DNA of 64,000 nt from the NCBI GenBank assembly GCA_049967415.1, contig JBMFSS010000002.1, positions 87,717 to 151,716 on the forward strand. The letters run 5' to 3'. Positions 4,768 through 39,378 of this stretch are shown here, piece by piece. The notes beneath the pieces were generated by a model. The model was not told the origin of the DNA and searched no databases. It was given only the letters and a program-made list of their open reading frames with translations. Source of the DNA: Candidatus Limnocylindrales bacterium (GTDB lineage Bacteria > Chloroflexota > Limnocylindria > Limnocylindrales > CSP1-4). Position numbers and translations under genes: made by a program. The number at the start of each line of letters is the position of its first letter. The stretch's first letter is position 1.

Positions 4768-5597
4768 GCGGCCCGGGCCATCCGCACCGGGATGCCGGCT
4801 GCCGCCATGGCGTGCTTGACGGTGGCGATTCCGTGCAGGTCCCGGTGAAAGATGGATGCAGCCAGGACCGCGTCTGCCCCTCCTTCGAGGATTGCAGCCA
4901 CCAGGTCGTCCGGGCTGCCGGCTCCCCCTGACGCCACGACCGGGACCGAGACCGCCGCTGTCACCGCGCGCAGCAACGGCAGATCGTAGCCCCCGCGCGT
5001 CCCGTCCCGGTCGATGGACGTCAGGAGGATCTCGCCTGCGCCACGCGCGGCCGCCTCGGCAGCCCAGGCGACCACGTCCCGACCGGTCCCGGTTCGTCCG
5101 CCATGAACGACCACCTCCCAGTGCTGGCCTCGCGCCAGTGGCGCCGTTGCGGCGCCGCCGCGAGTCCCGCCGTCCAGGGGCGGGCCTCCGGGGTCGAGAC
5201 GCCGGGCGTCGATGGAGACCACCACGCATTGGCGGCCGAACCGTCGGGTGCAGCGATCGATCAGCGCCGGATCACCCACCGCTGCAGTGTTGATGGCGAC
5301 ACGATCGGCACCCGCCCGCAGAACCGCGCGCATGTCATCCACCGAGCGGACCCCGCCGCCGACGGTGAGGGGCACAAAAGCCCGTTTGGCCGTCCGCTCC
5401 ACCGCGTCGAGCAGGGTGCTCCGTCCTTCCACTGCGGCCGTGATGTCGAGCAAGACAATTTCGTCCGCGCCGGCCGCCGCATAGCGCGCCGCGAGCTCGG
5501 CCGGATCGCCTTCGTCCTGCAGTTCGACAAAGCGGGTTCCCTTGACAACCCGACCATCCCGCACGTCCAGACACGGGATCACCCGGCGGAGCAGCAT
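4764..5597 (-). CDS. hisF: Imidazole glycerol phosphate synthase cyclase subunit
   Basis: 277 aa; [20 protein letters not shown]...[11 protein letters not shown]...GGGVRS...ASGGAG, the classic HisF (beta/alpha)8 sequence. Confidence 0.95.
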
Positions 5598-21799: not shown

Positions 21800-23275
21800 A
21801 TGGCAGAGGCGGCCGGCAACGTGACGCGCGTCGAGGAACTCGGCGAGATCACGTCCACCCACGCGTACACCTTCTCGCTCAAGACCTTGACCTGGGGCAC
21901 GCTGGCGATCACGGCCCTCATGGGGCTGCTCTATTTCGCGGTCGGCTTTCCGCCGGCCTTCGACACCTTCTACGAGTCGATGTATTTCCATGCGGTGGGA
22001 ATCGGGCTGGCGGCGCTGGCGGCCTACCTCGTGATGGATACCTTCGACCTCCAGCGTTACGAGCCTCCGATGGACTTCCCGATCTCGTACCGGGCGTTCA
22101 TCGGTGTGGTCTTCGCGGCCATCGGCGGGATCCTCACCATCAATCCCACAGTCTGGAAGGACCTGCCCGACCTCGGGATGCTCTTCTACCTGACCGCCTT
22201 CATCCTCCTCTTTGACGTGGGCGGGGCGCTCTTCATCGAGCTCCTGCTGCTCCCCCGCAAGCAGGTCAGCGCGTACTGCTGCGAGAGCCACAACGTGGTC
22301 GAGTACGTGAGCCGCATCCTCCCGATCGCCCCGGCGCAGCGGCAGTCATACGCAAAGGTCGGGGTGGGCTACTGGCTCACCCTGGCCGCCATCGGCTCGG
22401 CGTTCCTGGCTGGCGTGGTGGGCTTCGTCAACCTCTGGGTCCGGGCTCTCGGCCCGTCGATCTTCGGGGGGTACATGGGCTGGCTCAAGCTCGACGCGAA
22501 CGGTTTCCTCGGCGCGACCCTGGACCCCCACACGCACATGATGGCGCTTGCGATCATGGCCGGGATCGTCTCGGTGGCGGCGGTCCGCTTCGGCGTCCTA
22601 GACGGCGCACCCTCCGTCCGGCGCACGGTCGCGCATGTCGGCCTCTGGATCTCGGTCTTCGGCGTCGCCGCCATGACCGTCATCCTGCTGGCGGTCGCCT
22701 TCCTCAACTTCACCCCGCCCACCCTCTTCGCGAGCGGCAAGGACGGGATCAATGGGATCGCGGGCGACGACGCATCGATGAGCCTGATCGGGATCGGGGC
22801 CATGGTCCTGGTGGTGGCGGTGCTCGCCGAGCGCCGTTTCTGGCGCGACCCCCTGCGCCTGATGGTGCTCGCCACCTGGGTCGCGGCGGTGGCCATCAAC
22901 ATCATCGAGGGCTTCTACATCGAGCTCAACGAGAACCAGTTCCAGGCCGCGCTCACCAAGAACGACGCCGCCTACAGCGTGGCGCAGCCGATGACGGGAG
23001 TCTTCCTGCTGATCGCCGTCTCGCTCGCGCTGCTGCTGGTCGACCATTACGAGATCGCCGGGGGTGCGCGACGCCTGGTGGCGTGGGTTGCGGGGATCGG
23101 ACTGCTGGTGACCCTGGTCGGTGTCACTCTCTGGACCTTTGCCGATCCCTCGCACAGCGGGATCCCCTTCGTCCTCTACGTGGCGGGTGTGGCGATCTGC
23201 TATCTGATGGTCGTCCTGGGTGCGTGGGCGGTCTGGACGGCCCGGACCGGCAGCTACCGGCGTACGTATCCATGA
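21800..23275 (+). CDS. Polytopic integral membrane protein of unknown function (~12 predicted TM helices)
   Basis: 491 aa of alternating long hydrophobic stretches, with no motif I can assign to a known family (CCESH, HTHMM, VDHYEI). Its TGA overlaps the ATG of the downstream heme O synthase gene (ATGA). It is preceded by a ~240-nt low-GC leader. Confidence 0.6.
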   Translation: MAEAAGNVTRVEELGEITSTHAYTFSLKTLTWGTLAITALMGLLYFAVGFPPAFDTFYESMYFHAVGIGLAALAAYLVMDTFDLQRYEPPMDFPISYRAFIGVVFAAIGGILTINPTVWKDLPDLGMLFYLTAFILLFDVGGALFIELLLLPRKQVSAYCCESHNVVEYVSRILPIAPAQRQSYAKVGVGYWLTLAAIGSAFLAGVVGFVNLWVRALGPSIFGGYMGWLKLDANGFLGATLDPHTHMMALAIMAGIVSVAAVRFGVLDGAPSVRRTVAHVGLWISVFGVAAMTVILLAVAFLNFTPPTLFASGKDGINGIAGDDASMSLIGIGAMVLVVAVLAERRFWRDPLRLMVLATWVAAVAINIIEGFYIELNENQFQAALTKNDAAYSVAQPMTGVFLLIAVSLALLLVDHYEIAGGARRLVAWVAGIGLLVTLVGVTLWTFADPSHSGIPFVLYVAGVAICYLMVVLGAWAVWTARTGSYRRTYP

Positions 23276-24949: not shown

Positions 24950-25179
24950 ACGCCGCGCCGGCTCCGATGCCGGAGCGTGCCGCAGTCGCCGAACGGGCTC
25001 GCGGCGCTGCTGTTTGACCGGACCACGCTCCGCGGGCCGCGGACCGAGATCAAGCGGTTCCGGTGGTGGCCCTGGGGGTCTGGTGGTGGCTCGCAAGGCG
25101 GACGTTCGAGGCCGGCTGCGCCCTGGGGGGCCATTCGCCCCGGCTCGCAGTAGGATCGACGTGCGCGAACGGAGGTTGC

Positions 25180-26375
25180 ATGGCTCGGATCATCGTGTAC
25201 ACCGGCAAGGGTGGCGTGGGCAAGACCAGCATCGCTGCCGCCACGGGGCTGCTGGCTGCCGCCCGGGGCTATCGCACCATCGTGCTCTCGACCGATGCGG
25301 CGCACAGCCTGGCCGACTCGTTTGACTTGCCGTTGGGACCCGAGCCCACGCCCGTGGCCCCCAACCTCTGGGGCCAGGAATCGGAGGTCTCGCACAACAT
25401 CCAGAAGTACTGGGGCGTCATCCAGGACTACGTCTCCACGGTCTTCCAGTGGCGCGGGCTGGACGAGGTGATGGCCGAGGAGATGAGCGTCCTCCCCGGC
25501 ATGGACGAGCTGGCGAGCCTGCTCTGGATCGCGGAACACCATGACAAGGGCCAGTACGACCTGATCGTGGTGGACGCAGCACCCACGGGGGAGACGCTGC
25601 GGCTGCTCTCGCTCCCGGAGGCGGGCAAGTGGTGGATCGAGAAGATCTACCCGATCAGCCGGCGCATCGCACAGGTGACCAACCCGATTGTGGGGCGGGT
25701 GATCGGGATGCCGATGCCCGGCGACGAGGTCTACACGGCCGGCGAGCAGCTCTTCGCCCGCCTCGAGCACATGCACGACCTGCTGGCCGATCCGCAGCTC
25801 ACCTCGATCCGCCTCGTGCTCAACCTCGAGAAGATGGTGATCAAGGAGGCCCAGCGCGCCTTCACGTACTTCCACCTGTACGGGTATCCGACCGACCTGG
25901 TGGTGTGCAACCGGGTGGTCCCGGAGGATGCGGGCCCCTACTTCGAGGCGTGGCGCCAGGCGCAGGCGCGGTACTGGCCGGAGGTCGAGGCAGACTTCGA
26001 TCCGATCCCCATCCGGCGCGCGCCCTTCTTTGAGCATGAAGTGGTGGGCATGCCCATGCTGCAGCAGCTGGGCGCCGAGGTGTTCGGCGAGGAGGACCCG
26101 ACGGGCTTCTTCTACCGGGGCAATCCCTACCGCGTCACCCGGGAGGACGGCGCCTTCGTGCTCGCGCTCGAGCTGCCGTTCACCTCGAAGGAGGAGGTGA
26201 CGCTCCATCGCAACGGCGACGAGCTGGTGGTGCAGGTGGGGTGGTGGCGGCGCAACCTGATCCTCCCCCGGTCCTGGTGGATCTGCCCACCGGAAGCGCC
26301 GGGTTCGAGGACCACGTGCTGAAGGTCAGGTTCTCGGCCGGACCGAGAACGAAGTCAGGAGCGTCGAAGCGATGA
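25180..26375 (+). CDS. ArsA/Get3-family P-loop ATPase with a C-terminal ArsA_HSP20-like domain, apparently frameshifted near 26270
   Basis: MARIIVYTGKGGVGKTS (deviant Walker A)...DAAPTGETLRLL (ArsA signature). The C-terminal region is alpha-crystallin-like (EDGAFVLALELPFTSKEEVTLHRNGDELVVQVGWWRRNLILPR). The annotated frame ends ...SWWICPPEAPGSRTTC* at 26322. Another frame reads LVDLPTGSAGFEDHVLKVRFSAGPRTKSGASKR* ending at 26375, which fits an HSP20 C-terminal strand. The shift lies in ctcccccggtcc (C5). Confidence 0.75.
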
Positions 26376-26601
26376 CAGATCTGGAAGACCAGCTGGCAGG
26401 GCTGGAGCAGCGGCTCGAGGCCCCGAGGCGCACCGGGAGCGGAGGCCTCGGGGGCTGATCGGTCTCTGGCGAGAGATGGTTCCCAGCGAGGCCCGGCGGC
26501 ACATGCGCGCCGCGCGCAAGGAGCAGCTCCTGGCCGCGCGGGCGGTGCTCGATCACTGGATCGAGCGAGCCGAGCGAGAACCCGCGGAGAACCTGCCGCG
26601 C
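26372..26601 (+). CDS. Small hypothetical helical protein (28-aa ORF MTDLEDQLAGLEQRLEAPRR... plus a following 50-aa ORF in another frame; together ~84 aa if a G5 run is really G6), translationally coupled to the ArsA-HSP20 gene
   Basis: The ATG at 26372 overlaps the TGA of the shifted ArsA-HSP20 frame (ATGA). The first reading frame stops at 26456-26458 inside cctcgggggctga. Another frame continues ...GLIGLWREMVPSEARRHMRAARKEQLLAARAVLDHWIERAEREPAENLPRRESIPLD*. Confidence 0.35.
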
Positions 26602-26634
26602 CGGGAGAGCATCCCGCTCGACTGACTCGGCGAC

Positions 26635-27537
26635 GTGCCGTCCGGCACGTCCCAACGGGGCGGGCGGAGGGTACATACTCGTCCCGTGGACACGGCGCCG
26701 GCTTCGAAGGGGGAAGGTCGCATCCGGCTGTGCGCCGGCGACGGTTGCGTGGTGGTCGCGCCGGCGCAAGGGGGCCGCGTGGCGTCCCTGACCGTTGCGG
26801 GGCATGAGCTCCTGGTCACCTCGGCCGAGAGCGTGTACGGCTGGGGCGCGTTCCCCATGGTGCCCTTTGCGGGCCGGATCCGGCGGGGCGTGCTGCGTTT
26901 CGCGGGCCGAGCCCACGAGCTGCCGCGCACCATGCCGCCGCACGCCATCCACGGGACGCTGGCCGATGCGGCCTGGACGGTGGCCGAGCCACCCGCCGAC
27001 GATCGGGTCTTGCTGACCGCGCCGCTGCTCCCGCCGTGGCCGTTTCGGGGCCGGGCGTTCCACCGGCTCCAGCTGGAACCGGGGGCTTTGCACTTGGAGC
27101 TGCGCGTCGAGGCCGAAGAGCCGATGCCGGCCTGGGTTGGCTGGCACCCGTGGTTCCGCCGGCACGTGGAGGGCGCCGCGGGCGAGCTCGAGCTGGTGGT
27201 CCGGCCGGGCCGCATGTTCGTTCGGGATGCCGAGGGTCTGCCGACCGGCCTGGCCGTGCCGCCGTCCCCACGCCCCTGGGACGATGTCTTCGCGGACCTC
27301 CCGGCGGCTCCCCGGCTGCGCTGGCCGGGGCTGCTGACACTGGACGTGGAATCGGCCTGCGGCTACTGGGTGATCTACGACGAGCAGCCCCATGGGCTCT
27401 GCGTCGAGCCACAGACCGCCCCGCCCGACGCGGCCAACTGGATCCCCGAGGACGCCCTGCTGGTTGCGCCGGGGCGGCCGCTGGTGACTGCCATGACGCT
27501 TCGCTGGCGACCTGACGAGGAGCGCCGGTCAGGCTGA
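26635..27537 (+). CDS. Aldose 1-epimerase (galactose mutarotase-like) family protein
   Basis: YGWGAFPMVPFAGRIRRG...HELPRTMPPHAIHGTL...WHPWF motifs of the aldose-1-epimerase fold. Confidence 0.75.
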   Translation: MPSGTSQRGGRRVHTRPVDTAPASKGEGRIRLCAGDGCVVVAPAQGGRVASLTVAGHELLVTSAESVYGWGAFPMVPFAGRIRRGVLRFAGRAHELPRTMPPHAIHGTLADAAWTVAEPPADDRVLLTAPLLPPWPFRGRAFHRLQLEPGALHLELRVEAEEPMPAWVGWHPWFRRHVEGAAGELELVVRPGRMFVRDAEGLPTGLAVPPSPRPWDDVFADLPAAPRLRWPGLLTLDVESACGYWVIYDEQPHGLCVEPQTAPPDAANWIPEDALLVAPGRPLVTAMTLRWRPDEERRSG

Positions 27538-27596
27538 CCCGCTCTGCCGCTGCCGGCGTCCAGGGCGCCCCGGGCCCCACCCGGGGCGGCGACGCG

Positions 27597-28526
27597 TCAG
27601 GCGAAGGCCACCGCCGCATAGCCGACGGTGCGATATGGATCGCCACCGGGCACGTCGGCCGAGGTGCCCGCAGCGAGCAGGGTCCCGGCCCGCAGCCCCA
27701 TCGCCCGCCAGGCCGCGACGGCGAAAAGGACCGGCTCGATGCCGCACATGCCGCAGGCAATCCCGGGGATCGCGGAAAAGCGGACCCCGGCCTCGCGGGC
27801 CGCGAGTTCCTCGCCGTCCAGGGCCAGGAGCGGCGGGAGCAACGTGCGGGTCACGGCCTCGGCCTCTGCCGCCGGCGGATAGTGCGCGAAGTCAGAGCTG
27901 GCCACCAGCGCCACGTCCCGCCCGGCGGCACGCTCCCGGGCCAGCAGCTCGCCGAGGCGCGCACCGGCCGCCATGCCCTCTTCCGTCGACTCGAAGGAGA
28001 CCAGCAGCGGCACAATGGCTGTGCCCGGGCAGGCCCGCACCACGAACGGCAGCTGGACCTCGATCGAGTGCTCCCGGAGGTGCGCCTCCGGGGCCGCCGC
28101 GAACGGGGTCCCCAGGCCCAGGATCCGACCGCTCAGCGCCGCGTCCACCGGGACGTCGCCGAGCGGCGTCCGCCACGCGCCCGAGGGCCAGATGGCCACG
28201 CCACGCAGCCCCGCCACGTAGTGGTTGGTGCCGGCCAGGACCACGGTGGCCGGGGGCTGCGCCCGCAGCGTGGCCCAGGCCGCGGCCGCGATGGGCCCGG
28301 AGTAGACCAGCCCGGCGTGCGGCACCACCAGGCCCACCGGACGCTGTCCAGGGTGGGACCCAGCGCCGGCGGCCGCGGCCTCGAGCTGTCCGTCCACCAG
28401 TCGCTGCAGGGCCGCCGCCGATCCCGGATAGAACGTCCCGGCGTGGGCGGGCCGCCGCACCGGTTCGGGCGGCGCGAACCCCTGCTCGCGCACGTCAGGG
28501 CTCCACGTCCAGGCCCACGCCGGCAA
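27597..28526 (-). CDS. AmmeMemoRadiSam system protein B (MEMO1-family)
   Basis: AHAGTFYPGS...VVPHAGLVYSGPIAA...SSDFAHYP motifs of the MEMO/extradiol-dioxygenase-class-III-like family. It overlaps the upstream radical SAM gene by 32 nt. Confidence 0.8.
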   Translation of the reverse strand: MPAWAWTWSPDVREQGFAPPEPVRRPAHAGTFYPGSAAALQRLVDGQLEAAAAGAGSHPGQRPVGLVVPHAGLVYSGPIAAAAWATLRAQPPATVVLAGTNHYVAGLRGVAIWPSGAWRTPLGDVPVDAALSGRILGLGTPFAAAPEAHLREHSIEVQLPFVVRACPGTAIVPLLVSFESTEEGMAAGARLGELLARERAAGRDVALVASSDFAHYPPAAEAEAVTRTLLPPLLALDGEELAAREAGVRFSAIPGIACGMCGIEPVLFAVAAWRAMGLRAGTLLAAGTSADVPGGDPYRTVGYAAVAFA

Positions 28527-29673
28527 GCGGCGTGCCGCAGTGCGGGCAGGCGTTCCCCCGCAGCGCGACGCGCGACACCCGGTAGCCGTCCCGGCGGATC
28601 AGGACCCGGCCACAGCCGCTGCAGCGCGTGTCGGTGTCGTCCTCGCCGGGGACGTTCCCCACGTAGACGTGCCGCAGTCCCGCCCGGCGCCCGATCTCGG
28701 CGGCGTCCCGAAGCGTGGCAACCGGCGTGACGGGCCAGTCGGCCATCCGATACGCGGGGTAGAACCGGCTCAGGTGCCAGGGCGTCTCCGGGCCCAGCTC
28801 CCGCGCGATCCAGTCGGCCGCCGCGGCCAGCTCGGCCGGGTCGTCGTTCTCGCCGGGCACGACCAGCGTGGTGACCTCCACCCAGATCCCCAGCCGTCGC
28901 ATCGCGACAAGGGTCTCCTTCACGGGCTCCAGGCGCGCGCCGCAGATCCGGCGGTAGAAGCGGTCGTCGAATGCCTTGAGGTCCACGTTGGCCGCGTCCA
29001 GCACCGGCGCCAGCAGTTCGAGCGCCTCCGGGGTCTCGTACCCGTTGGTCACGAACAGGTTGACGAGGCCGGCTTCGTGAGCGAGGCGCGCGGTGTCGAG
29101 CGCGTACTCGAAAAAGATGGCGGGCTCCACGTAGGTGTAGGCGATCGAGCGGGCGCCGGCCGCCAGGGCCTCCTGGACCACCTGTTCGGGCGGGAGGGTG
29201 CGCGTCGGGAGGTGGAACCCTTCGCGGGGGGCCTGGGAGATCTCCCAGTTCTGGCAGTAGCGGCAATGGAAGTTGCAGCCCACCGTGGAGATGGAGAAGG
29301 CGTCGGTGCCGGGAAGGACGTGGAAGAAGGGCTTCTTCTCGATCGGCTCGACGTGGACCGCCACCGCTTCGCCGTAGACCAGGCTCACCAGGGTCCCGTT
29401 CCGGTTCTCCCGGACCTGGCAGATCCCTGAGCGGCCCTCCCGGATCACGCAGCGATGGGCACAGACATCGCAGCGGATTGTCTGCGCCGCCGTGTGTCCC
29501 GAGAGGTGCGCGAGCGGGTCCTCCACCGGGGTGGCCAGCAGCGCCAGTGCGACGCCCCGGCCCTGGAGCGCGGGGTCCCTCGGGCGGCGTGGGTCGGGTG
29601 GCGCCCCGACCGTTGCGCCGTGCACAGCGGGGGCGTTGGTGTAGGTGTCCTGGTCCTGGACGCGAAATGGCAT
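28495..29673 (-). CDS. AmmeMemoRadiSam system radical SAM enzyme
   Basis: An N-terminal Cys cluster (CDVCAHRCVIREGRSGICQVR) is followed by the radical-SAM motif GCNFHCRYCQNW. The C-terminus ends in a CSGCG...CPHCG zinc-ribbon-like segment. Starts at MPFRVQDQ. Confidence 0.8.
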   Translation of the reverse strand: MPFRVQDQDTYTNAPAVHGATVGAPPDPRRPRDPALQGRGVALALLATPVEDPLAHLSGHTAAQTIRCDVCAHRCVIREGRSGICQVRENRNGTLVSLVYGEAVAVHVEPIEKKPFFHVLPGTDAFSISTVGCNFHCRYCQNWEISQAPREGFHLPTRTLPPEQVVQEALAAGARSIAYTYVEPAIFFEYALDTARLAHEAGLVNLFVTNGYETPEALELLAPVLDAANVDLKAFDDRFYRRICGARLEPVKETLVAMRRLGIWVEVTTLVVPGENDDPAELAAAADWIARELGPETPWHLSRFYPAYRMADWPVTPVATLRDAAEIGRRAGLRHVYVGNVPGEDDTDTRCSGCGRVLIRRDGYRVSRVALRGNACPHCGTPLAGVGLDVEP

Positions 29674-29791
29674 GCGGGAAGTATGCTCGCCAGCTCGCCT
29701 GGGCGACATGGCCGGAGGGGGCCGAATCATGCCGCCGTCCGGCCCGGGCCGGTGGATGCGCCCGGCATCGGCGCCTCCCCGCCTTGCGCCC

Positions 29792-34088: not shown

Positions 34089-34478
34089 ATGCCTGCCGAT
34101 CCGCGCCCGGGAGTGCAGGTGTTCGGCCGCCGGGACTCGCGCGACACGCAGAAAGCGTTGCGCTTCTTCAGGGAGCGGCGGATCCCGGTGCATTTCGTGG
34201 ACGTCGCGATCCGCCCGCCGGCGGCCGGGGAGCTGCGGCGGTTTGCGGATCGACTCGGGGCGACGGCGCTTCTCGACCGCGACGGCCGCCGATACCGGGA
34301 CCTGGGGCTGGCGTACCTTCGCGTCACCGAGTCTGAGCTCTTCGACCGCCTGGTGGCAGATCCCGCGCTGCTCCGCCTGCCGCTGGTCCGTAACGGGCCC
34401 GCCTGCACCGTGGGTCCCGCGGAGGCGATCTGGATCGGGTGGCTGCGCGCCGCGGCACCCGGTGAGACTCGCGGCTGA
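34089..34478 (+). CDS. ArsC/Spx/YffB-family protein (thioredoxin-fold)
   Basis: VQVFGRRDSRDTQKALRFFRERRIPVHFVDV... resembles the YffB/ArsC-family N-terminus, though the canonical Cys is replaced (no CxxC). Confidence 0.55.
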   Translation: MPADPRPGVQVFGRRDSRDTQKALRFFRERRIPVHFVDVAIRPPAAGELRRFADRLGATALLDRDGRRYRDLGLAYLRVTESELFDRLVADPALLRLPLVRNGPACTVGPAEAIWIGWLRAAAPGETRG

Positions 34479-37504: not shown

Positions 37505-37604
37505 GGTGGTCCCCTCCGGGTACGGGCGTAGACCTGGTCATCGTGCCACGGAAGTGGCCCCCGTGCTCGTTGGCGAGCGGCCCTCGGCCGTTGCCAGGGG
37601 CGGG

Positions 37605-37710
37605 CGGCGGCAGGAGCGGCCGGCGGCAGGAGCGGCCGGCGGCAGGAGCGGCCGGCGCGCTGTCGGGGCGCCAGCGGGGTATCGGAGCCGGCGCGCTGTC
37701 GGGGCGCCAG
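37605..37710. repeat. Tandem repeats in the 5' region of the LysM gene: three perfect 16-nt units (cggcggcaggagcggc) followed by a 22-nt unit (cggcgcgctgtcggggcgccag) present twice
   Basis: Seen directly in the sequence, 20-120 nt upstream of the probable ATG at 37729. Confidence 0.75.
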
Positions 37711-37728
37711 GGTCGGTATCATGCCGCC

Positions 37729-39378
37729 ATGTACGATCGCCGGGCTGGCGACCCGGATGGCGCGTTGGTCTGCCCCTTCGTGGCCCTGGCCGCGGACCGT
37801 GACGCGCGTTCCCAGGGCCCGGATCGGAACCACCGCTGTTACGCGGAGCCCACCCCGGCCCCGCGCGCCATCGCACACCAGCAGGAGTACTGCCTGACGG
37901 CCGCGTTCCCCGCGTGTCCCACGTTCCAGGACTGGGCGCGACGCGAGTCGGCCCGGCCGATCGCCCCGGCCGCCGGCGCCACGCCATCCGTGGCGCCTGC
38001 GCGGCAGCCGCCGGAGATGCCCGCAGCGACCGATGCTCCGGGGCCGGCTGGCGAACCGGCGGAAGGCCTGGACGAGCGAGGAGCGCCCGGATTGTGGGCC
38101 GACGCGCGCGCGTGGGCTGCGCCCCCGCCCTGGCAGGCCGGGAGCGAGGAGGATCGCGCGGGGGCAGGCGCAGGGTCCCGAGGCCCGGGCGGGCACGAGC
38201 GCGCGGCGGGATGGGGCGAGTCTGCGCTGCGCGGCGAACCACTGCAGTCCATCCCCCCTTCTGTCGAAGGCGCCCGGCCCGGCATCGACCGGCACCCCTT
38301 CGAGGAACCCGCGCCCACCGCGGGGTCCGTGCCGGAGGCCCCGGATGCCGGATCGCCCCCGCCCGCCAGTGGCCGCGAGGAAGGCGCGGCCGCACCTGGC
38401 GTTCCCGGTGCGCGACGAGTCGAGCGACGGCCGGGCGATGAGACGGCGCCTGGCCCGGGTGCGACCGGCTCGTGGGACGGCGCGCCGTGGGACACGCCCG
38501 CGTTCCTGCTGGGCCGTCGGGACGCCAGGTCTCCGGGAAACCGAAGCGAGCTGCCGACGGGCGCCCGGCCCGGCGGCCCTGAGGCCGTCTCGGCTCCGCG
38601 GACGACGCCGCCGCCGGCGCTGACGCACCCCAGCCCGGACGTGCGACCGGACGGAACCCCGCGCCCGGGCCGGGGCGGCCGGCCGGGCGCGTCACTGCCC
38701 GCGGCCGGGCTGCGGGCGCCGGCGTCCCAGCCGGGCGTGCTGGGGACGGGCTCGTCCCGGCCGAGGCCCGGGATCGGCGCTGCCCAGGAACCGGCGCCGC
38801 GCGCGGGGCTGCTCTCCCGGTCCGGGTTGGCGGGGCTGCCCGCGGCCAGGGGGTTGTTGCTGCACCGGGCCGAGGTCGGTGCCCCGGAGGACGGGATCGG
38901 TGCCGGAGCGCCAGCCTGGGAGCGCCCGCTGCGCCAGGAGCGGTTTCCCGATCTCCGCACGCGAGTGGGGCTGCCGCAGGTCCCCAGGGTGTGGCTGGGA
39001 GCCATCGCGGTCGTGGTGGCTGCGGTCGTCCTGTTTTTCCTCCCGACCCTGGCCCCGGGCTTTTTCGGGGCGCCGCGCCTGGCGACGCCGGTTGCCACCG
39101 CCAGCGTCGCCCCGACCGTGTCGCTGGCGCCGACACCGCCTCCGCTGCCGACACCCACCATCTACACCGTGGTGCAGGGCGACACGCTTTCGGTCATCGC
39201 CAGCCGCTACGGGTTGACGGTGAGCCAGTTGCTCAAGGCCAACCCCCAGATCAAGAACGCGAACCTTCTGGCGGTGGGCGACCAGATCACGATCCCGGTC
39301 AAGGGTTCCTCGATCAGCGGGGCAGCGGGCGGAGCTGCAGGCAGTACGGCGCCCGGGGGGGCAAGCGGGGCTCCCTGA
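37729..39378 (+). CDS. LysM-domain protein with Cys-rich N-terminus, long Pro/Ala/Gly-rich disordered region and a single TM helix
   Basis: N-terminus: MYDRRAGDPDGALVCPFVALAADRDARSQGPDRNHRCY...CLTAAFPACPTF (five Cys, one His). TM helix: VWLGAIAVVVAAVVLFFL. C-terminal LysM: YTVVQGDTLSVIASRYGLTVSQLLKANPQIKNANLLAVGDQITIP. Confidence 0.7.
   Translation: MYDRRAGDPDGALVCPFVALAADRDARSQGPDRNHRCYAEPTPAPRAIAHQQEYCLTAAFPACPTFQDWARRESARPIAPAAGATPSVAPARQPPEMPAATDAPGPAGEPAEGLDERGAPGLWADARAWAAPPPWQAGSEEDRAGAGAGSRGPGGHERAAGWGESALRGEPLQSIPPSVEGARPGIDRHPFEEPAPTAGSVPEAPDAGSPPPASGREEGAAAPGVPGARRVERRPGDETAPGPGATGSWDGAPWDTPAFLLGRRDARSPGNRSELPTGARPGGPEAVSAPRTTPPPALTHPSPDVRPDGTPRPGRGGRPGASLPAAGLRAPASQPGVLGTGSSRPRPGIGAAQEPAPRAGLLSRSGLAGLPAARGLLLHRAEVGAPEDGIGAGAPAWERPLRQERFPDLRTRVGLPQVPRVWLGAIAVVVAAVVLFFLPTLAPGFFGAPRLATPVATASVAPTVSLAPTPPPLPTPTIYTVVQGDTLSVIASRYGLTVSQLLKANPQIKNANLLAVGDQITIPVKGSSISGAAGGAAGSTAPGGASGAP

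Follow-up and report, generated by a model that had tools for sequence, protein, structure and literature searches.

Introduction

Get3d proteins are Get3/ArsA ATPases with a C-terminal alpha-crystallin domain, and structures have been determined for Nostoc All4481 (PDB 3IGF/8EGK) and Arabidopsis At1g26090 (PDB 8ELF) (Barlow et al., JBC [Journal of Biological Chemistry] 2023, PMC10248533). The proteins have been tied to photosynthesis, and the versions found in Chloroflexi and Chlorobi keep the conserved catalytic loops and have no CxxC motif. The alpha-crystallin domain occupies the surface that binds Get4; its role and the partners of Get3d are unknown, and any partners would have to be new (PMC10248533). 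Here we examine a two-gene locus in a 64,000-nucleotide stretch of a Candidatus Limnocylindrales genome (assembly GCA_049967415.1, contig JBMFSS010000002.1, positions 87,717 to 151,716 of the forward strand; hereafter the window, with a G+C content of 72% across its length), in which the gene for a predicted ATPase of Get3d architecture overlaps the gene for a small, putatively helical partner protein.

A preliminary description of the locus, made from the sequence alone, had called this architecture one of unknown function. That statement is partly out of date, given the described Get3d architecture (PMC10248533) and a partner that already belongs to a Pfam family, PF27253 (AF_1253). In the explanation that we consider best overall, to which we give a probability of about 0.6, the locus is a conserved operon for a Get3d-like ATPase and its helical partner, in which each gene is one base short in this sequence.

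Results

The operon and its parts

The locus consists of the following features.

25171-25175, + strand: GGAGG, ribosome-binding site (RBS) of the ATPase gene, 4 nt ahead of the ATG at 25180 (sequence inspection)
25180-26270, + strand: frame-1 part of the ATPase gene, residues 1-363 plus 2 bases of codon 364 (Pfam, TIGR00345, tblastn)
25204-25227, + strand: P-loop GKGGVGKT, a deviant Walker A motif, ATPase residues 9-16
26146-26333, + strand: ArsA_HSP20 domain (PF17886), residues 323-385 of the repaired protein, split by break 1
26269-26271, + strand: frame break 1, one base missing between 26270 and 26271, in the CG? codon of Arg364 (DNA alignments)
26271-26375, + strand: frame-3 part of the ATPase gene, residues 365-398, then TGA at 26373-26375
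26320-26322, + strand: premature TGA of the unrepaired ATPase open reading frame (ORF), after 17 out-of-frame residues matching nothing
26357-26361, + strand: AGGAG, RBS of the partner gene, within the 3' end of the ATPase gene
26372-26424, + strand: frame-2 part of the partner gene (PF27253, AF_1253), residues 1-17 plus 2 bases of codon 18
26421-26425, + strand: frame break 2, one base missing at about 26424/26425 (GCC CC? GAG; DNA alignments)
26425-26625, + strand: frame-1 part of the partner gene, residues 19-84, stop at 26623-26625
26450-26454, + strand: G5 run, 26 nt downstream of break 2, coding CGG GGG (Arg-Gly) in frame
26632-26651, + strand: perfect 9-bp inverted repeat I7 (GACGTGCCG / CGGCACGTC), 7 nt past the partner stop

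Both breaks are one-base losses, shifting the frame from 1 to 3 in the ATPase gene and from 2 to 1 in the partner gene. After repair, the ATPase (398 aa) and the partner (84 aa) match their orthologues exactly in length, with identities of 97% and 94%, an agreement that is not chance. The preliminary description was right that both genes are broken by -1 type shifts relative to intact orthologues, and that the adjacent frame completes the HSP20 end of the ATPase and runs to a TGA at 26373-26375 that overlaps the ATG of the small ORF at 26372.

The ATPase

Gene 1, as read from its sequence, encodes a single-domain Get3/ArsA-fold ATPase of Get3d architecture. The repaired protein of 398 aa combines the Get3/ArsA fold with a C-terminal ArsA_HSP20 domain. 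An ArsA/Get3-like ATPase with a GKGGVGKT motif had been recognised before, and profile searches agree: Pfam ArsA_ATPase (PF02374) matches with E=1e-85 and 288 bits (cut-off 24), and NCBIfam TIGR00345 (TRC40/GET3/ArsA) with 252 bits (cut-off 135). Profile scores above the curated cut-offs, together with a GKGGhGK[ST]-type Walker A, place the protein in the Get3/ArsA/TRC40 superfamily. The ArsA_HSP20 architecture proposed earlier is likewise complete after the one-base repair, with PF17886 covered at positions 1-63 of 63 (72 bits); on the unrepaired ORF the profile reaches positions 1-43 of 63 only (51 bits), and the remainder is the junk end that had been remarked upon.

Alignment to the archaeal Get3 structures 3zq6 and 3ug6 shows an intact P-loop and an intact switch I (STDAAHSLADSF). 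Switch II reads DAAPTGET in place of DTAPTGHT and is invariant in 40 relatives. The CxxC zinc motif is absent from the ATPase, the archaeal CEFC aligning with GPYFEAW, and there is a single Cys in the entire protein.

For the structure we used the AlphaFold 2 (AF2) monomer model of a 97%-identical homologue, P0121 (predicted template-modelling score [pTM] 0.75; mean predicted local distance difference test [pLDDT] 74). This model has a seven-strand beta domain at residues 318-385, whose last strands lie at 371-377 and 380-385, and break 1 as written removes both of these strands from the beta-sandwich. They are supplied by the frame-3 part of the gene, which reads VLVDLPTGSAGFEDHVLKVRFS... from 26271 to the stop at 26373-26375 and encodes the final pair of beta-strands in the alpha-crystallin-like domain plus a basic tail. 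The best Foldseek match of the model in the PDB is Nostoc Get3d (8egk_A/B), aligned over 396-398 columns that take in the alpha-crystallin domain (E=5e-23; TMq 0.65, TMt 0.72); archaeal Get3 ranks behind it and covers the ATPase part only. As regards a possible hydrophobic chamber for clients, as in Get3d, helices 138-203 of the ATPase are hydrophobic and Met/Pro-rich (GMPMPG), and AF2 confidence is low there (pLDDT 53-65). The PADLOC models of anti-phage defence gave no match for either the ATPase or the partner.

The partner protein

Gene 2 appears to encode an 84-aa, all-helical PF27253 protein that is translationally coupled to gene 1. The repaired small ORF has 131 small homologues, mostly of 84-117 aa (best E 2e-32 at 100% coverage), all of which carry the precomputed Pfam tag PF27253 'AF_1253', and the membership of the window protein rests on full-length homology to these tagged proteins. 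A search of 1.8 billion representative proteins with the partner profile returned 754 clusters at 50% identity. The family alignment is made up of an N-terminal heptad helix (LxxRLAxLExRL), an invariant amphipathic core (P-x-E-x-R-x-H-[ML]-R-A-A-R-K-E-Q-L-L-A-A-R-x-[FL]-[LI]-D-H-W-I) and a C-terminal [R/P]-R-R-E-S-I-x-[L/V]-[E/D]-COOH; 152 of the 162 family members end in I-x-[LVIF]-[DEQ]-COOH with R-R-E-S ahead of it. In the window, the core (HMRAARKEQLLAARAVLDHWIER) and the C-terminal tail (PRRESIPLD) are both carried by the frame-1 part.

The AF2 model of the partner has helices at residues 2-24, 29-36 and 39-69 and an unstructured tail at 70-84. Its pTM is only 0.35 and there is no compact monomer fold, which suggests that the protein oligomerises or folds on binding. 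Foldseek found no matches with this model, at that pTM of 0.35, and the partner sequence, searched against the PDB, met with coiled-coil matches only, none of them significant. No function or partner for PF27253 was found in a full-text search of the literature.

Some remote family members (P0383, P0387, P0397, P0407 and P0413; 73-78 aa) carry the core P-x-E-x-R-x-H-x-R-x-A-R-K-E twice in tandem, so the family core can be seen as a repeatable helical unit. Most of them lack the RRESIxLE tail.

The partner ATG at 26372 overlaps the repaired ATPase stop by 4 nt (ATGA), as it does at orthologous loci, and the 30 nt around the partner RBS are the same in the closest relatives (loci L001, L002, L006 and L007) and differ in the distant L005. 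Without repair the partner ORF is only 28 codons long. The end of the gene is at 26625, whereas 26601 was first reported. The earlier expectation of a helical protein of about 84 aa holds after repair; the repair then proposed, reading G5 as G6, does not, as described below.

An internal ATG (partner Met35) opens a 49-aa ORF as written, at 26476-26625, which spans the whole conserved core and the tail. If break 2 were real, a truncated partner could in principle start there, though no convincing RBS precedes this ATG. Beyond the partner stop, I7 could be a terminator-like hairpin, though it has no T-run. A scan for consensus promoters and terminators around the operon called none, I7 included, and an Rfam scan of the whole window at gathering score gave no matches.

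Conservation of the gene pair

A scan with the partner profile, taking one genome per species, yielded 78 loci, 75 of them with enough upstream sequence to be assessed. In 66 of these 75 the ATPase gene lies immediately upstream on the same strand. The gap between the paired genes ranges from -23 to +18 nt, with the -4 (ATGA) overlap in 20 loci, and every ATPase upstream of a partner in the scan keeps the alpha-crystallin-like domain. In the reverse direction, all three further ATPase loci taken from the homologue list have a PF27253 gene directly downstream, in unrelated neighbourhoods. The coupled two-gene module that had been proposed is thus conserved, and the comparison with orthologues, chosen beforehand as the test that could overturn the proposal, found the HSP20 tail and the partner gene both retained. 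Conservation is limited to the ATPase-partner pair, as is usual for proteins that work together.

Hosts of the 78 loci are nearly all Chloroflexota (Limnocylindria, Limnocylindrales), with single loci labelled Glassbacteria and Solirubrobacteraceae. In close relatives (L001-L004, L006 and L007, from Joint Genome Institute [JGI] metagenomes and one Logan assembly), which share about 88% nucleotide identity with the window, the 398- and 84-codon genes are intact, joined by the ATGA overlap, and stand in the same gene order as in the window. Judged by these comparisons, the locus represents a conserved two-gene operon of Limnocylindria-type, soil and freshwater Chloroflexota. A full-text literature search found no paper that links the ATPase and PF27253 in an operon; all that it returned was the 2023 structural study of Get3d (PMC10248533).

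Stand-alone AF_1253 paralogues occur at two loci (L020, 752-1009, and L021, 2037-2294). They encode 85-86 aa with the tail kept, and are followed directly by archease and RtcB genes. A further partner locus (L052), truncated by the start of its contig, comes from one of these two metagenome-assembled genomes (MAGs).

Position of the two frame breaks

In tblastn comparisons with orthologues, ATPase residues 1-375 are covered in one frame; orthologue ATPase residues 363-398 match the window in frame 3 (94% identical), and orthologue partner residues 19-84 match it in frame 1 (95% identical). Alignment against L001, L002, L005, L006 and L007 puts break 1 directly 3' of a C5 run at 26265-26269, where the window reads CCCCCG-GT-CCTGG and the relatives CCCCCG-CGC-CCTGG. 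The C5 run is equally long in the relatives, contrary to the earlier suggestion that its length had changed. The parsimonious repair is LILPR-VLVDLP, which keeps Arg364 (at least 90% conserved), and not LILPPVLVDLP.

At break 2 the window has GCCC-C-GAGG and the relatives have GCCC-TG-GAGG. The preliminary description had placed this break in the G5 run. The run is in frame: the frame-1 translation of 26425-26454 is EAHRERRPRG, the same as residues 19-28 in the closest relatives (L001), and the missing base must therefore lie at 26421-26425. With the break upstream of the run, the small protein as first repaired has a stretch of about 10 residues read out of frame (PRRTGSGGLG). Repaired correctly, it reads MTDLEDQLAGLEQRLEA[L/P]EAHRERRPRGLIGLW... 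/ MTDLEDQLAGLEQRLEA[L/P]EAHRERRPRGLIGLWREMVPSEARRHMRAARKEQLLAARAVLDHWIERAEREPAENLPRRESIPLD and is 94% identical to P0001. To read the two sites as undercalled C-runs (C6 to C5 and C5 to C4) would force R364P and L18P; partner position 18 is always hydrophobic in relatives.

A GC-rich hairpin, I5 (arms at 26418-26429 and 26445-26456; -32.7 kcal/mol over 55 nt), holds break 2 in its 5' arm. The TG-to-C change of the window creates a perfect inverted match of 9 nt here (CCCCGAGGC/GCCTCGGGG), and the quasi-palindrome at 26418-26456 is also present, less perfect, in the relatives. In a null test, 0.9% of random positions fell within an inverted match like that at break 2. Break 1 does not lie in an inverted or direct repeat; its longest match is an ordinary 6-7 nt.

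Surroundings of the breaks

When 18 syntenic proteins from a related contig were aligned to the window by tblastn, only the ATPase and the partner were split, and the 16 flanking genes (21.8-36.5 kb) were intact in single full-length alignments. A codon log-odds frame scan of the 64 kb found no further break. The window contains 171 C/G runs of at least 5 nt, 41 of them in the block that was checked against relatives, and none of these breaks a frame; a general homopolymer problem is thus not evident. Against the nearest relatives, pN/pS (nonsynonymous against synonymous changes) is about 0.05 on either side of break 1 and about 0.13 across the partner gene. Changes on the window branch downstream of the breaks amount to 4 synonymous codons and 1 conservative nonsynonymous codon. 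All orthologues examined are intact except L028, from a long-read MAG (MFD06714.bin.2.119), in which a one-base insertion at about 5180-5190 (CTT-G-CTC) splits the ATPase into two frames.

Other features of the window

Downstream of the operon, a 71-nt insertion (27517-27587) separates convergent genes for an aldose-epimerase-like protein (26635-27537, + strand) and a Memo-like protein (27597-28526, - strand). These genes overlap by 25 nt in L001 and L006, and the C-terminus of the epimerase differs in the window. A third frameshift, in the epimerase-like gene, was considered and rejected, the apparent 23-aa 'insertion' being this 71-nt intergenic insertion. The Memo-like gene overlaps a radical-SAM gene (27597-29730, - strand) in an AmmeMemoRadiSam-type pair, and the syntenic block shows no AMMECR1. 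The polytopic membrane protein of 491 aa encoded at 21800-23275 has no Pfam match and is 96% identical in relatives; in close relatives its gene always stands ahead of genes for a UbiA prenyltransferase and an FMN reductase. Neither a 491-aa protein near the operon nor the window ATPase itself gave an exact match in reference protein collections.

ARAGORN called a 102-nt tRNA-Arg(ACG) at 4925-5026 (- strand), in sequence with coding-like codon usage. The call is probably a false positive, and Rfam reports no tRNA there at gathering score. In a long ORF at 37543-39376 (+ strand), codon usage looks coding-like in the last third alone (38695-39303); the ORF may extend too far, or may be a gene of unusual composition.

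Discussion

Cause of the frame breaks

Intact orthologues, intact flanks and undiminished purifying selection indicate that the two breaks are either very recent or artefactual. We lean slightly towards a local sequencing, polishing or consensus artefact, with the operon intact in the organism. One base per site is enough to recover the orthologous lengths and identities, codon-level conservation is undiminished beyond each break, and the RBS and the ATGA junction are perfectly conserved. Both sites are C/G-rich and adjoin C-runs, break 2 sits within a stable GC hairpin, and the locus in the public long-read MAG carries a one-base indel in the same gene. The preliminary description had preferred homopolymer errors in the assembly; an artefact in general is slightly favoured here as well, but a homopolymer cause is not, given 171 runs and no other break, and neither site shows a simple homopolymer length error. 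Two observations weigh against the artefact reading. Two errors 154 nt apart, with none in the other ~62 kb, are improbable at any uniform rate, and the quasi-palindrome at break 2 is more perfect in the window than in the relatives, which is the signature of a real templated mutation.

These same observations speak for two real deletions, in a pseudogene pair inactivated very recently in the organism or its dominant strain, an explanation whose chances we put somewhat below even. Clustering in one operon, with 16 neighbours and the rest of the 64 kb free of breaks, is expected after an operon's release from selection and not from random error. Miscounting of homopolymers is not the best explanation for either break, and the C/G runs of the window leave all other frames intact. 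Quasi-palindromes are known to give rise, through templated correction, to frameshifts accompanied by neighbouring substitutions, and the complex TG-to-C change at break 2, which perfects the hairpin stem, fits that pattern. Yet relaxed constraint is not seen, with pN/pS downstream equal to that upstream and the 4 synonymous changes set against 1 nonsynonymous; the explanation needs two independent frameshifts, each of them extremely recent; and every other orthologous locus but one is intact. Programmed -1 ribosomal frameshifting, by which the genes would be functional as written, might be read into two shifts of the same direction beside C-runs and a hairpin after break 2. We give it next to no weight because no orthologue needs a frameshift, and we rejected it on that ground; moreover, a slippery X XXY YYZ heptamer is absent from both sites, and the hairpin holds the shift site itself instead of lying downstream of it. 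Annotation of the window operon should flag a pseudogene pair or await read-level confirmation.

Proposed function of the ATPase and its partner

With moderate to low confidence, and by analogy, we regard the ATPase as a Get3d-like chaperone or targeting factor and the partner as its dedicated cofactor. The ATPase would act as a homodimer under ATP control, as a holdase or targeting factor whose clients are hydrophobic, for example tail-anchored proteins, as has been proposed for Get3d. The partner would dimerise through its N-terminal heptad helix, as a zipper, and each of its two tails would dock onto one alpha-crystallin-like domain of the dimeric ATPase, the beta4/beta8 groove being the likeliest site; docking might then tune the closed and open states of the ATPase or the release of its client. 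Alternatively, the basic helices of the partner could sit at the dimer interface in the manner of Get1 or Get2. The tail-docking model is tentative, and we think it rather unlikely. We also think unlikely the wider proposal that AF_1253 proteins are the missing dedicated cofactor of bacterial Get3d-type ATPases, as dimeric helical adaptors whose RRESIxLE tail, like that of a small heat-shock protein, would insert into an alpha-crystallin domain that is otherwise an orphan and would gate the ATPase/client cycle. If true, it would provide a first function for both the Get3d alpha-crystallin domain and PF27253, and recognition between an alpha-crystallin domain and an I-x-I motif would be split over two polypeptides.

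Several points weigh against our overall reading of a Get3d-like ATPase with a dedicated partner. Nine of the 75 assessable partner-like loci are away from an ATPase gene (5 stand-alone copies and 4 weak or partial matches), one remnant being among the partner loci not beside the ATPase, and no ATPase-partner fusion was found among the best 150 family representatives (39-192 aa). In the scan of one genome per species, the partner family was not found in cyanobacteria or Chlorobi, where Get3d was defined; nearly confined to non-phototrophic Chloroflexota, the partner may be a lineage-specific accessory. Membership of the ATPase in the Get3d clade, as judged by sequence models, is not complete: the NosAFP equivalog model gives 138 bits against a cut-off of 325, and by sequence the ATPase domain matches archaeal Get3 (E=1e-45) better than it does Nostoc Get3d (E=1e-25). 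The docking analogy draws on a likeness to the I-x-I tails of small heat-shock proteins, and the Get3d alpha-crystallin domain is without the usual oligomerisation features and canonical loop (PMC10248533).

A different identity, that of a true arsenite-pump subunit (ArsA) with the small protein as an ars accessory factor, is suggested by JGI annotation pipelines, which name homologues 'arsenite-transporting ATPase', and by an ArsC-family gene about 8 kb away (34089-34475). We consider it highly improbable. The protein has a single ATPase domain and not the tandem A1-A2, its one Cys leaves no three-Cys metalloid site, TIGR04291 reaches 88 bits against a cut-off of 650, and arsB, arsD and arsR are not adjacent in any neighbourhood examined. 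The single domain, the low score and the lack of adjacent ars genes show that this is not an arsenite pump, and the ArsA identity was rejected.

Comparison with known systems

ArsA of E. coli R773 (PDB 1F48) shares the Pfam ATPase family and a DTAP-type switch II region with the window ATPase. The latter corresponds to one half of ArsA, with no tandem, no metalloid-binding cysteines and no ars operon context. Archaeal and cytosolic Get3/TRC40 proteins are closer, having the same ATPase fold and motifs and giving the best PDB sequence matches (3zq6 and 3ug6, E=1e-45 to 1e-41). Get3 is moreover controlled by small helical or basic partner segments, namely the Get1 coiled-coil domain, the Get2 N-terminal basic helix and Get4. 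The partner described here differs from all three in having no sequence or fold match to them (the Foldseek search with its model being empty), and it is soluble, with no transmembrane segment; the window ATPase differs from Get3 in the absence of CxxC.

In small heat-shock proteins, a C-terminal I-x-I/V tail binds the beta4/beta8 groove of a neighbouring alpha-crystallin domain, examples being ERTIPITRE in alphaB-crystallin and ...INIE in M. jannaschii Hsp16.5. The partner resembles them in its flexible C-terminal extension, which AF2 leaves unstructured and which carries a conserved hydrophobic-x-hydrophobic motif, and the alpha-crystallin-like domain of the window ATPase has no I-x-I-type tail of its own. 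Unlike in the small heat-shock proteins, motif and domain here stand on separate polypeptides.

Likeness to Get3d extends to the PF02374 plus PF17886 architecture, the deviant Walker A, the lack of CxxC and the best full-length structural match, and the alpha-crystallin-like domain of the window ATPase aligns to that of Nostoc All4481. The differences are an identity of only 24% to NosGet3d, a family-specific switch II (DAAPTGET) and a coupled, dedicated small partner that has not been described for Get3d. To our knowledge, the Limnocylindria-type Chloroflexota that host the operon are not phototrophs. The ATPase is thus of a known kind, the Get3d type, and the partner family is already in Pfam; with the operon link missing from the literature and the partners of Get3d listed as an open question in the structural study (PMC10248533), the conserved operon and the tail motif together offer a testable lead of modest novelty. 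What limits this lead is that the partner seems confined to non-phototrophic Chloroflexota; in the window, moreover, both genes are interrupted. Conservation of Get3d-type ATPases extends from green bacteria and cyanobacteria to the chloroplasts of plants, and a coupled small protein with a docking-like tail, present in dozens of species, is a concrete and cheaply testable candidate for a Get3d partner.

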